Positions 10,213 to 13,773 of a stretch of DNA of 15,206 nt are shown here, in pieces. The notes beneath the pieces were generated by a model that saw only the letters and a list, made by a program, of their open reading frames with translations, did not search any database and had not been told where the DNA came from. Numbering within the stretch: the first letter of the stretch is position 1; each line of letters begins with the position of its first letter. The stretch lies in contig JAEOTC010000173.1 in the NCBI GenBank assembly GCA_016840035.1, positions 1 through 15,206 of the forward strand, read 5' to 3'. Both the position numbers and the translations under genes were made by a program. The DNA comes from Candidatus Hodarchaeota archaeon (GTDB lineage: Archaea; Asgardarchaeota; Heimdallarchaeia; Hodarchaeales; Hodarchaeaceae).

Positions 10213-11082
10213 ATGATTTTTATGGATCACAATGAGGAATCACAGGTAATAGGGTATTGTGGGGAATGTGGGAAAAAATTAATAGCAAACGCGACATTTT
10301 GTGCTTATTGTGGTGCTCCCATACCTAAAATTGGGGGTTTTATTCCTCCCCAAGCCAATATCCCTTATACAATAACCAATACGCGAGAAGTTAGTCCACC
10401 TCAACCTTTTTTATCAAATTTTCTCAACGTGATATCCACCCCTAAAGAAAAAATGCCTGGAATTGCCTCTTCTCCGAACTTATCCCAACCTCTACTAGTT
10501 AACATTATAATAGGCATCTTAGCATTCATTGCGATGTCAATATTAATATATAATTCTACTGTATCACTAGATGCTTCACTTCTTACCCTTATTCCCAGTG
10601 ACGAGTTGAGTGTGCAAGAATTTACAGATTTGTTTAAAATATCTATTCCATTTTCTGCCCCAATAGTTATTCTACTGAACTGGCTAATTTTAAGTTTGAT
10701 TCTATGGATATTACATGCATTTTTTGCATCAGATCTGAGTTCATATGATCGAGATTTTAAAACAATGGCTACAATCGTAGGTTGGGCTCAGATCCCTAAT
10801 ATATTCCATCAACTTGTTACGATTGTTGTTCATTATTTTGTTCTGTCTCCTGGAGGAGAAATCAATATAGGATCCTTTGGACAAATGGAAATCACCCCTC
10901 CTGCGGGAAGTTCAGATATTTTATCTAGAACTATCCTTTATGGATCTGGGATCCTATTCATCTTCTGGAGTCTCGTTTTAATATACTATGGGATAAAATC
11001 TTTAGGATCCGATAAAGCGAATCCAGTGACTATTTGTTCGATCTATGGCGTACTTAGAATTGTCCTATTTTTCTTTTTTTAA
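10213..11082 (+). CDS. Zinc-ribbon plus Yip1-family membrane protein
   Basis: N-terminal CGECG-x8-FCAYCG, then NVISTPKE (Yip1 N-terminal 'vl..P.e' helix), about 5 TM segments, FKTMATIVGWAQIP and WSLVLIYYGIK as in prokaryotic Yip1 proteins. The start may be ATG 10222. Confidence 0.8.
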   Translation: MIFMDHNEESQVIGYCGECGKKLIANATFCAYCGAPIPKIGGFIPPQANIPYTITNTREVSPPQPFLSNFLNVISTPKEKMPGIASSPNLSQPLLVNIIIGILAFIAMSILIYNSTVSLDASLLTLIPSDELSVQEFTDLFKISIPFSAPIVILLNWLILSLILWILHAFFASDLSSYDRDFKTMATIVGWAQIPNIFHQLVTIVVHYFVLSPGGEINIGSFGQMEITPPAGSSDILSRTILYGSGILFIFWSLVLIYYGIKSLGSDKANPVTICSIYGVLRIVLFFFF

Positions 11083-11801
11083 ATTAAAGTTCGTGGTTCA
11101 TAACGAACCCTAAGATGAAGGTATATCATGTCTCCGATTGGCTCAAAGCTTAAAATTTCTAAGAAAGGCGACTGATCAAAAGATGAAAACTCATTTGGGA
11201 AGGTAAAAAATGGCACACCATCTCCACCAAGCACAGGAGCAATTGCCACATGTATCTCATCAATCAATTTATCTGTTAGCATACTTCCATTTAGTTTACT
11301 TCCTCCTTCTAGTAAGATACTTTTTATCTCATAATCCTGGAACAGAACTGGCATTAAATGCCTTAAATTGACCAATGGTTCCTCTCCACAGATGATTACT
11401 TCACAACCTTCTTTCTCAAACTTATGGACTCTTTCTTTTGGACAATTTCTAGTAGTAGCGATGATTGTTTGAATTTCTGGACGAAATTTAATAACTCTAG
11501 AATCAAGAGGGATCTTACCACTAGAACTTACAACAATACGAATAGGATTTCGAATAGTTTGCCCAGGTTTAAAATATTCAGGTTTCACAGTTAATTTTGA
11601 ATCATCAGCTAGAATAGTACCACTTCCCACCATGATGGCGTCTTTACTAGCCCGAAGGTGATGTACTCTCTTCCAATCCTCAGTATTAGATAGCTTACTA
11701 TCTCCTGATATGGTAGTTATTTGGCCATCTAAGCTTATTGCAGCTGAGAGTATAACTTTCGGACGTTTGAGGGATTTTTTTTTAGTTATCATTGATATCA
11801 T
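11079..11801 (-). CDS. 2,5-diamino-6-(ribosylamino)-4(3H)-pyrimidinone 5'-phosphate reductase (stand-alone RibD C-terminal domain, archaeal ArfC/Rib7 type)
   Basis: RPKVILSAAISLDG, RVHHLRA..DAIMVGSGTILADDSKLTV, NPIRIVV, ILLEGGSKL and LIDEIHVAIAP; no deaminase domain. The start may be ATG 11792. Its stop overlaps the Yip1 stop (TTAA 11079-11082). Confidence 0.88.
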   Translation of the reverse strand: MISMITKKKSLKRPKVILSAAISLDGQITTISGDSKLSNTEDWKRVHHLRASKDAIMVGSGTILADDSKLTVKPEYFKPGQTIRNPIRIVVSSSGKIPLDSRVIKFRPEIQTIIATTRNCPKERVHKFEKEGCEVIICGEEPLVNLRHLMPVLFQDYEIKSILLEGGSKLNGSMLTDKLIDEIHVAIAPVLGGDGVPFFTFPNEFSSFDQSPFLEILSFEPIGDMIYLHLRVRYEPRTLI

Positions 11802-11873
11802 TCACTAATATAAGCTAAGTAGCAATAGGAATTAATTACACCTTTTTTAAAGTCTAACAGAAACACAGTTAGT

Positions 11874-11906
11874 AATATTGTAATATATTACAACAATATT
11901 TTTAAA
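11874..11906. promoter_or_regulatory. Palindromic operator candidate adjacent to a TATA box in a divergent promoter region
   Basis: Perfect 16-bp palindrome TTGTAATATATTACAA (11878-11893) with overlapping outer arms AATATTGT/ACAATATT (11874-11881, 11893-11900), then TTTAAA (11901-11906). A second TTTAAA at 11846-11851 could serve the reductase gene. Confidence 0.5.
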
Positions 11907-11926
11907 CTCGAATTTTGAAGATTAAA

Positions 11927-12065
11927 TTCCTTGAAATGACCGAATTATATTCGGATTCGATCAAGGAAAGTCTCCTGAAACGAAAGTTTCGGTGTGATAT
12001 AGCCCAGCTATATCGGAAAACAAGTCCAGTATTGGAAGTTTTCCCCTCAATCAAGAAATGGAGGT
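11927..12065 (+). ncRNA. Candidate structured cis-regulatory 5' leader RNA (five consecutive stem-loops)
   Basis: TTCCTTGA/TCAAGGAA enclosing CCGAAT/ATTCGG; CTGAAAC-GAAA-GTTTCGG; GATATAGC-CCA-GCTATATC; GGAAAAC/GTTTTCC enclosing TCCA/TGGA; CCTC/GAGG over the RBS. It begins ~21 nt downstream of a TATA box. Family unknown. Confidence 0.55.
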
Positions 12066-12071
12066 TAAAAT

Positions 12072-12284
12072 ATGACAATTGAAATTGAAGAAAATGTAGA
12101 TTTACACCATCAAGCCGAGATGGAATTAGTTTGCCCGTTCTGCGCAACTCATACTTTGTCATCTATCGTCAATCATAGTACCTTACGTCTCAAATGCAAC
12201 GAATGTGGTATGGATGCTTTTGTCACCCGTATTCCACGAGACAAGAAACTATCTGACTATATTTCAAGAAGACTGATTGCGTAA
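12072..12284 (+). CDS. Small C4 zinc-ribbon protein (70 aa)
   Basis: CPFC-x17-CNECG; GGAGGT RBS at 12060-12065; fills an otherwise empty gap. Confidence 0.8.
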   Translation: MTIEIEENVDLHHQAEMELVCPFCATHTLSSIVNHSTLRLKCNECGMDAFVTRIPRDKKLSDYISRRLIA

Positions 12285-12384: not shown

Positions 12385-13773
12385 TTATTCGGTAATTGGT
12401 TCAAATCGTGCAGTAAAATGACGAAGGAAATCAGGACTGTAGGTCATCCTCAATCCCTTTATTTTCTCTCTTGACTTATATAATTCAATTATCGACTGAC
12501 AAATATAATCGAGATGCTCTCTAGAGTACACTCTTCTCGGTATAGCTAGTCTAACTAATTCTAATTCTGGATACACCCATTTTTCATCCTCGTTTTGATA
12601 AGCAAACATAACTGATCCGAGTTCAACACATCTAATTCCAAACATCTCATATAATGCGATTGTGAGAGCCCAACCTGGAAATTCAGATTGTGGAATATGG
12701 GGGAGGAATTTTCGGGCATCAAGATTGACCGAGTGACCTCCAACAGGTAATAAGATTGGAATATTGGCCTTTTCTAATTTATTTCCTAAATATTGAAGTT
12801 GTTGATAGCGATATTGTAAATAATCTTCAGAAAGTACTTCATTCAAACCTCTGGCCATGGTTTCGAGATCTCTCCCAGCCAAACCGCCATAAGTTGGAAA
12901 TCCTTCAGTAATAACCATTCTTTCTTTAATTCGATTGTAAAGATTAGCATTATTAAGAGCGATGAAGCCGCCAATATTCACCAAGCCGTCTTTTTTAGCA
13001 CTCATCATACACCCGTCAACATAAGAGAACATCTTTTGTGCTATTTGTATTGGGGTATAATCAGAGTATCCTTTCTCTCGTAATTTAATGAAATAAGCAT
13101 TTTCCGCAAAACGTGCAGCATCAAGAAAGAAAGGAATTTTGTACTTCCTCGCAATTTGAGAAACTGATTTAATGTTTTCCAATGAAACAGGTTGCCCTCC
13201 TCCAGTATTATTTGTTACCGTTAGAATTATTACAGCCACATTGGAATTTTGATTGAGGTATTCTTCTAAAGCATGTATATCCATGTTTCCCTTGAAATCA
13301 TGGTAAACAGAAGTATTAAATGCTTCTTGGACAACTAAATCATGTGCTTTCGCGCCTATAGATTCAATATTTGCACGCGTGGTATCAAAGAATTGGTTGG
13401 AGATTGCAACTTTCGTTTCATCCAAATTAAGGGCGAAGCAAACTAGATTTTCCGCACTTCTTCCTTGGTGAGTTGGAATAACATACTCGAAGCCAGTAAT
13501 TTCTTTGACAACTGATTCTAGATGAAAATAGTTTCTACATTGTGCATACGATTCGTCTCCTAGCATTAAGCCAGACCATTGATTGTCTGACATTGCTGAG
13601 GTACCTGAATCTGTAAGAAGATCGATATATACTTCTTCGGCTGGAATATTGAATATATTATACCCAGCTGCTTTCAAGTGTTTCTTTCGATCCATCAGCG
13701 TTGTTAATTTTATTGGTTCAACCATTTTTATTTTGAAAGGAGGCGGAGGAAGGGTGTCATTTGTGTTAGGCAT
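12385..13773 (-). CDS. tnaA: Tryptophanase (tryptophan indole-lyase, PLP-dependent)
   Basis: PFKIKMVEPI, IDLLTDSGT, THQGR, DAARFAENAYFIK and RLAIPRRVY. Tryptophanase-type residues FDTT, SAKKD (PLP Lys), FPTYGGL and LRHFTAR are present, rather than the tyrosine phenol-lyase forms FTTT, SGKKD, MPSYGGL and LRFFTAR. Confidence 0.92.
   Translation of the reverse strand: MPNTNDTLPPPPFKIKMVEPIKLTTLMDRKKHLKAAGYNIFNIPAEEVYIDLLTDSGTSAMSDNQWSGLMLGDESYAQCRNYFHLESVVKEITGFEYVIPTHQGRSAENLVCFALNLDETKVAISNQFFDTTRANIESIGAKAHDLVVQEAFNTSVYHDFKGNMDIHALEEYLNQNSNVAVIILTVTNNTGGGQPVSLENIKSVSQIARKYKIPFFLDAARFAENAYFIKLREKGYSDYTPIQIAQKMFSYVDGCMMSAKKDGLVNIGGFIALNNANLYNRIKERMVITEGFPTYGGLAGRDLETMARGLNEVLSEDYLQYRYQQLQYLGNKLEKANIPILLPVGGHSVNLDARKFLPHIPQSEFPGWALTIALYEMFGIRCVELGSVMFAYQNEDEKWVYPELELVRLAIPRRVYSREHLDYICQSIIELYKSREKIKGLRMTYSPDFLRHFTARFEPITE

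Follow-up and report, generated by a model that had tools for sequence, protein, structure and literature searches.

Between a divergent RibD_C reductase gene and an ORF for a 70-residue zinc-ribbon protein lies a gap of 270 nt, in which almost the entire span between the predicted transcription start and the Shine–Dalgarno (SD) sequence can be folded into adjoining helices. The question raised by this locus is whether these helices belong to an RNA, on which strand that RNA is read, and what it does for the gene that follows. The window, as the whole 15,206-nt stretch of DNA that was analysed is termed here, comes from a Hodarchaeales (Asgard) MAG of approximately 4.3 Mb. Positions 11927–12071 form a structured leader, the 5′ untranslated part of the zinc-ribbon mRNA; it is a new motif of one Hodarchaeales genus and very probably a functional cis-acting element. 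The features of the locus are collected in Table 1.

Table 1. Features of the zinc-ribbon locus and its leader; positions are those of the window.
Feature	Position	Strand	Description
RibD_C reductase gene	11079–11801	minus	divergent from the zinc-ribbon ORF
Palindrome TTGTAATATATTACAA	11878–11893	.	perfect, 16 nt; upstream of the TATA box
TATA-like box ATATTTTTAAA	11896–11906	+	block conserved in aligned relatives
P1	11927–11968	+	long, irregular 5′-terminal hairpin; 11927–11934/11961–11968, inner 11940–11945/11949–11954
P2	11975–11992	+	hairpin CUGAAAC-GAAA-GUUUCGG; 11975–11981/11986–11992, GAAA loop
Near-invariant CGGUGUGAUA	11990–11999	+	3′ arm of P2, UGU stretch, base of P3
P3	11996–12014	+	hairpin, 8 bp, variable 3-nt loop; 11996–12003/12007–12014
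P4	12015–12044	+	basal GGAAAAC/GUUUUCC, 12015–12021/12038–12044; inner UCCA/UGGA
Linker	12045–12059	+	CCUC pyrimidine-rich 5′ end, then A-rich; putative anti-SD (P5)
P5	12045–12048/12061–12064	+	predicted helix, CCUC with GAGG (RNAfold)
Shine–Dalgarno GGAGGU	12060–12065	+	invariant, 19/19 species
Zinc-ribbon ORF, 70 aa	12072–12284	+	CPxC...CxxC microprotein

The TATA-like box, which reads AACATTTTTATA in relatives, is separated from the start codon by 180–183 nt in 17 of the 19 species aligned and by 168 nt in the other two, which have lost part of the spacer between P1 and P2. From the position of the box, transcription is predicted to start at approximately 11926–11930, about 25 nt to its 3′ side. 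The start codon (12072–12074) varies between ATG, GTG and TTG among species and is always found 6–8 nt from the invariant GGAGGU; this fixed spacing, together with the variation of the codon itself, supports the annotated start and initiation driven by the SD.

Upstream of the TATA-like box, the palindrome TTGTAATATATTACAA sits among repeated (A)ATTACA(A) words (11870–11893) and overlaps an ATTACAA-type repeat. The (A)ATTACA(A) word occupies the same alignment column in 18 of 20 loci, and a AATTACAA-type word, often doubled, is kept by relatives at an equal distance from the TATA box. Judged by its sequence, the palindrome is a candidate operator at which a transcription factor might bind the DNA and serve both divergent promoters, and it looks distinct from the RNA leader. 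At the other end of the locus, a gene for a tryptophanase/tyrosine-phenol-lyase-like β-eliminating lyase (12385–13773, minus strand) is convergent to the zinc-ribbon gene. A convergent lyase is present in 8 of 19 species, and the remaining ones have a different convergent gene, encoding approximately 440 residues.

The + strand of window positions 11927–12075 was folded with RNAfold, alongside 200 dinucleotide shuffles. The leader has a minimum free energy (MFE) of −46.7 kcal/mol (z = −5.2), a stability reached by none of the 200 shuffles, and the MFE of 47 other leaders of the same genome with a GGAGGT SD is −28 at the median and goes no lower than −38. As modelled, the leader fold is therefore far above the local genome background. 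The five helices that a preliminary description had read from the sequence, P1 to P5, were all returned by RNAfold, at the positions of Table 1. The basal stem of P4, the internal loop of which contains an invariant A, abuts P3 directly. The gap between P2 and P3 amounts to three unpaired nucleotides (UGU) here and is reduced to as little as one nucleotide in relatives with an extended P2. Folded in the same way, the minus strand is just as stable (z = −5.1), and energy alone consequently does not settle the strand.

Orthologous loci from 19 species, all of one Hodarchaeales genus, were aligned. All 19 share a common layout, in which the TATA block is followed by a variable P1, a conserved P2–P4 domain, an A-rich linker, GGAGGU and a start codon (ATG, GTG or TTG). 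RNAalifold applied to this alignment yields P2, P3 and P4. In the explicit structure of P2–P4, 90.1% of cells are paired, as opposed to 35–50% when the partners are slid; seven pairs have changed on both sides, and the covariation score is reached by 0 of 500 shuffles. These sequences all come from one genus and the events are few, related and non-independent; the covariation support that the alignment gives to P2–P4 is good but not overwhelming. Compensatory changes, the lack of which in homologues would have counted against the leader according to the preliminary description, are thus present in P2–P4.

Each of the three helices contributes to this signal. In P2, which in most relatives reads CACCGA...UCGGUG, 92% of cells are paired; pair 7–22 is CG in 12 loci, UA in 4 and UG in 3, and pair 8–21 is GC in 18 and AU in one. 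P3 has 98% of its cells paired, with pair 31–41 occurring as CG (11) or UA (8) and three pairs changed on both sides. The basal stem of P4 is 95.5% paired (pair 52–69 is CG in 12 loci, UG in 4 and UA in 2), and the apical mini-hairpin of P4 covaries, its sequence being UCCA, CCCA, UUCC or CCUC depending on the species. The P2–P4 domain carries the invariant sequences GGUGUGAUA and UAUCGGAAAA. Conserved nucleotides are located in the stems, whereas the loops vary and the junctions measure 0–3 nt. P1 is of a different kind: a hairpin is in place in 19 of 19 species (median z −2.7), with sequences that are unalignable, so that P1 appears from the alignment to be conserved as structure only. Two short reading frames in the region were considered and rejected. 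A 55-residue TTG frame at 11915–12082, a candidate uORF, is interrupted by indels in relatives, and a GUG-UGA start–stop within GGUGUGAUA is lost in two species that read GGCGUGAUA.

The alignment also bears on the strand. The structure contains 28 G·U cells and 10 A·C cells, and 90.1% of cells are paired when read on the + strand, compared with 86.3% on the minus strand. The excess of G·U and the better pairing, combined with a TATA box on the 5′ side and the SD and ORF on the 3′ side, indicate an RNA of the + strand, as had been proposed, and what lies between the TATA box and that SD is a conserved structured RNA in 19 species. The equal stability of the minus strand in silico would be expected if the inverted repeats acted in the DNA, as operators or cruciforms, or were chance palindromes, with no function as RNA. 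This is very unlikely in view of the imbalance between G·U and A·C cells and the better pairing of the + strand, of compensatory changes that preserve pairing while the sequence alters, and of the location of the region downstream of the TATA box and its linkage to the ORF in RNA libraries.

This linkage was seen in Logan contigs from four metatranscriptome studies, which derive from relatives 80–95% identical to the window (three at 90–95%, the rest below 90%). The RNA-library contigs run unbroken from inside P1, or from just after it, into the ORF, spanning the equivalents of 11943–12212 (depth 73), 11975–12248, 11956–12133 and 11960–12133. The preliminary description had held that a transcription start near the ATG, with a region devoid of reads, would speak against a leader; contigs of all four studies join leader and ORF. 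They fit a single leader-plus-ORF transcript, although contigs cannot show ends and carry-over of DNA is possible. No RNA contig aligned upstream of 11943, where P1 is too variable between relatives to align. Owing to this variability, and to the inability of contigs to show ends, the 5′ limit of the contigs was not counted as evidence for the transcription start.

A compact multi-hairpin RNA of approximately 120 nt behind its own promoter, with a conserved U4 run in the 3′ arm of P4, might also be a separate small RNA acting in trans, either derived from the 5′ UTR or independently terminated. However, a U4 run terminates weakly in archaea and here lies inside a helix, the contigs of four studies are continuous from leader to ORF, the spacing of TATA box and start codon is fixed with no second promoter, and the motif was never found away from the ORF. 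A trans-acting small RNA is improbable on these grounds.

The element is single-copy, no further copies being found in the 4.3-Mb assembly. A MITE or dispersed repeat, which the preliminary description had offered as a way in which the leader could prove spurious, is ruled out by this count. A search of the whole window against Rfam 15 (4,227 models) gave 0 matches at the gathering score. The best sub-threshold matches, with E values of 1.6–8 and scores of 15–19 bits against thresholds of 38–100 bits, are chance, and this null result rules out a known RNA family, in agreement with the earlier view that the leader fits none.

A covariance model was built from the leader core and run on the genome of the window and on genomes of its genus and class. 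In its own genome the model makes one match (E 1e-17), the next having an E value of 2.3. Across the genus it finds the element in 19 of 21 genomes, once in each and in every case ahead of the orthologous ORF; in one of the two genomes without a match the site is covered by a run of N, and the other has neither the gene nor the leader. The run of N (approximately 100 nt in G016:C1, locus L028/L098, about 1541790–1541890) begins where P1 ends and stops shortly before the SD, and is a scaffold gap or a withheld stretch in a single-contig assembly labelled chromosome. There was no credible copy in 61 genomes of the class outside the genus; weak matches in G021, G039, G055 and G064 (22–26 bits) are without the invariant sequences and were dismissed as chance.

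At the DNA level, among 41 related genomes, the ORF and approximately 85 nt upstream of it were matched in 20 of the 21 genomes of the genus. The leader is present at 19 of 19 readable orthologous loci and never occurs without the ORF. A metagenome search with the pattern GTGATA-N9-15-TATCGGAAAA found the motif in 0 of 80 loci among the matches listed, and the region upstream of the sister-family orthologue (50% identity) is unrelated, with no such leader. Because it occurs as one copy before one gene in one genus, and is absent from paralogues and from the sister-family orthologue, the leader RNA is young, narrow in range and bound to that one gene.

The preliminary description had assigned P5 the role of sequestering the SD. 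SD pairing is predicted at 59–96% in all species, but with varying partners, either a CU tract in the linker or a UCUCC-like tract between P1 and P2, and in one species (locus L023) the linker is without a CU tract. When the linker was shuffled, occlusion of the SD was as high as in the native sequence, and the median unpaired probability of the SD hexamer, 0.24 in 47 control genes compared with 0.30 in the window, gives no specific occlusion. P5 as a specific SD-sequestering helix is therefore not supported: shuffled linkers and the control genes reach the same level of occlusion. The SD is invariant, and for that reason the P5 helix is not testable by covariation; sequestration of the SD as such is possible in the model.

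A second anti-SD, GTCTCC at 11970–11975, was confirmed as present in the window, but the position reads GCUCACC, GUUUCCC and the like elsewhere, and a conserved element with this sequence was rejected. In many species the spacer between P1 and P2 contains another UCUCC-like tract, for which pairing with the SD is predicted. The 4-bp helix that the SD of the window can form with CCUC is weak, as might be expected of an RNA thermometer in which an SD hairpin melts with rising temperature. Such a role is highly improbable, given that the position of the SD helix is not conserved and is left without a linker CU tract in the L023 species, that occlusion equals that of shuffled linkers and of the 47 control genes, and that the hairpins conserved in the leader are stable and do not involve the SD.

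A scan for further conserved antiparallel runs returned only alternatives that involve invariant sequence, namely CCGA paired to UCGG, where P3 and P4 join, and GGAGG paired to UUUCC in P4. As these pairings fall in near-invariant sequence, covariation cannot test them; in the model, pairing of UUUCC with the SD costs approximately 9 kcal/mol relative to the MFE. A pseudoknot between AUCCUG, located before P2, and the P4 loop was rejected: it is perfect in one relative, is reduced to 3 bp in the window, and is also missing among the conserved antiparallel runs.

The internal loop of P1 had been likened to a K-turn and L7Ae named as a possible ligand, an idea that the alignment does not support. 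The likeness in geometry stands for the window, where the loop has AAU-GA on one strand and four extra nucleotides before GA on the other, but not for the three closest relatives (approximately 85% identity), whose P1 loops differ and are without GA/GA pairs. No tandem G·A arrangement is conserved anywhere in the leader in the alignment of 19 loci. In P2–P4, the GA that follows UGU is Watson–Crick paired with UC (G–C in 19 of 19; A–U in 16, G–U in 3). The alignment rules out a K-turn in P1, at P2/P3 or in the P4 loops.

Neither the SD-occlusion controls nor the scan for alternative pairings gives a sign of a switch. This would suit a constitutive leader, the hairpins of which shield the 5′ end from 5′–3′ exonucleases or fix the rate of translation, whether low or high, with no effector, and P1, kept only as a stable 5′-terminal hairpin, is typical of stabilising elements. 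Simple stabilisers, however, need neither invariant stem sequences of 9–10 nt nor a fixed P2–P3–P4 architecture. In addition, the leader core, with a mean column identity of 73%, is conserved to a degree comparable to the 72–76% nucleotide identity over the leader-plus-ORF match, which is mostly ORF. A purely constitutive role is rather unlikely.

The encoded protein has CPxC and CxxC knuckles, an acidic N terminus and a basic C-terminal helix; its pI is 6.0 overall and 9.2 for residues 19–70, and identity across aligned family members is 64–94%. No Pfam or NCBIfam model scored above its cut-off, and the ESM Atlas returned unnamed clusters only. The knuckles resemble the eL42/L33 type weakly, and the fold-level match to Elf1/ELOF1 zinc ribbons is also weak (E 0.013–0.15; model pLDDT 65). 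The protein is neither canonical L44e nor Elf1, both of which are encoded elsewhere in the genome. The family is small, accounting for 15 clusters (50% identity) in a set of 1.8 billion representatives and for 25 database homologues. When 400 genomes from across the phylum were scanned, it turned up in 20 of the 21 genomes of the genus and in one sister-family genome; on these searches it is restricted to Hodarchaeales. The protein is best taken as a lineage-specific zinc-ribbon microprotein, plausibly one that binds nucleic acid, and binding to RNA is hinted at by the weak likeness to eL42/L33- and Elf1-type zinc ribbons.

Each genome contains one to four copies of the gene, and the leader is found on one copy only; it is absent from the paralogues, whose upstream regions are short and unrelated. 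Two paralogues in G010:C1 (1545954–1546160 and 2376504–2376713; L244 and L246), for example, have no P2–P4 leader. They lie behind a gene for an AsnC/Lrp-type HTH regulator or between divergent genes for LeuC-like proteins of the aconitase family, contexts that are amino-acid-related. In the upstream regions of paralogues (L081 and L083), AAAUUUUCC(C/U)UCAAU occurs approximately 30–40 nt before the SD and nearly equals GUUUUCCCCUCAAUC, the 3′ arm of P4 plus linker at window positions 12038–12052. The shared stretch may be a remnant of duplication or a common anti-SD-like element.

The reading that we prefer, tentatively, is that of a gene-specific cis-regulatory leader, a translational operator bound by protein and possibly autogenous. 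Transcription would start approximately 25 nt downstream of the conserved TATA box, and the RNA would fold into the variable P1 and then the compact P2–P3–P4 domain, followed by the A-rich linker and a strong SD. The P2–P4 domain would be the binding site of a protein, for which the most economical candidate is the zinc-ribbon product of the gene itself, making the leader an autogenous operator. Bound protein would reduce the access of ribosomes to the nearby SD, perhaps by locking the SD in a helix with one of the C/U-rich tracts on either side of the domain. Regulation itself, the protein as its effector and translation as its level are what we infer. The location of the conserved nucleotides in stems, with variable loops and junctions of 0–3 nt, points to recognition of helices by a protein; predicted SD occlusion, being the same as in controls, lends no specific support to the output step. 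The zinc knuckles and the basic C-terminal part of the protein speak for such a role, whereas the sub-threshold family matches, a structure model of mediocre quality and the overall pI of 6.0 speak against it.

A riboswitch would place a small-molecule or ion aptamer in P2–P4, with ligand binding altering access to the SD. A long, conserved and covarying leader directly before the SD, without an Rfam match and with a structured domain that is 90% paired, is consistent with such an element. The AsnC/Lrp regulator and LeuC-like genes that adjoin paralogues, and the convergent tryptophanase-like lyase downstream in 8 of 19 loci, leave room for a link to a metabolite. Nevertheless, the leader serves one gene, in one copy per genome and in one genus, with no common theme of metabolism or transport, and the gene that it would control encodes a zinc-ribbon microprotein, neither enzyme nor transporter. 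The conserved positions fall in helices, and variable loops and short junctions offer no obvious pocket; the scan of antiparallel runs brought up no conserved alternative pairing that covaries, and nothing in the analysis points to a ligand. The protein operator is favoured over the riboswitch, which we regard as unlikely, because of the linkage to one gene, the invariant stems with variable loops and the non-metabolic nature of that gene.

Characterised cis-regulatory RNAs in archaea are few, and none described for Asgard archaea was found in the literature, nor did Rfam give a match. There is a small chance that P2–P4 is a new archaeal sensor RNA, either a metabolite or ion riboswitch or the RNA half of an Asgard-specific zinc-ribbon switch that reads its own leader. 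If so, it would join a very short list of known archaeal cis-regulatory RNAs and be the first from the lineage nearest to eukaryotes; its range of one genus limits the generality of the finding. The leader and a lineage-specific zinc-ribbon microprotein of unknown function make a compact RNA–protein pair that can be tested in vitro, and Hodarchaeales strains have now been cultured, with transcriptome data (bioRxiv 10.1101/2025.02.26.640444).

The leader resembles riboswitches in position, size, multi-helix fold and proximity to the SD, and differs from them in having no match in 4,227 Rfam models, a single gene and genus, a non-metabolic gene and no apparent pocket. Bacterial ribosomal protein leaders (L1, S8, L20 and S15) exert autogenous control by mimicry of rRNA, the small basic protein that they encode recognising a conserved helical sequence. 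The leader described here is likewise structured, covarying and attached to one gene or operon, and the zinc knuckles of its protein weakly resemble eL42/L33; in contrast to those systems, the protein is not among the recognised ribosomal proteins, canonical L44e being encoded elsewhere. Mimicry of rRNA was rejected for the large subunit (LSU), the one covered: the LSU (23S) rRNA of four genus members, used in place of the genome of the window and G010, from which LSU rRNA is absent, gave chance matches only.

Euryarchaeal-type SECIS elements are marked by a GAA_A bulge and three S–S pairs, and Heimdallarchaeia/Hodarchaeales appear to be without Sec usage (PMC11227280). In 6 of 19 species (L016, L017, L020, L024, L026 and L027; window equivalent 12015–12044), P4 is similarly arranged as a lower stem, GAA, CCC...GGG, a bulge of 1–2 nt and the lower stem again. 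By contrast, P4 of the window has AAG and UCCA/UGGA, the GAA bulge and CCC/GGG being absent here and in most species, and the ORF to which the leader is 5′ contains no in-frame UGA. A SECIS-like reading of P4 is ruled out by its restriction to 6 of 19 species and by the lack of UGA in the ORF.

The autoregulatory 5′-UTR element of L7Ae in archaea (Daume et al. 2017, PMC5539422; Huang et al. 2019, PMC6298567) is also a gene-specific archaeal leader, and there the structured element is bound by the small RNA-binding product of its own gene and controls translation. It consists of a single K-turn stem-loop, whereas four hairpins with no conserved tandem G·A or 3-nt bulge are found here, and the protein encoded is a zinc ribbon, not L7Ae. 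By analogy, the L7Ae leader would be the closest archaeal precedent for the mechanism proposed for the zinc-ribbon leader.
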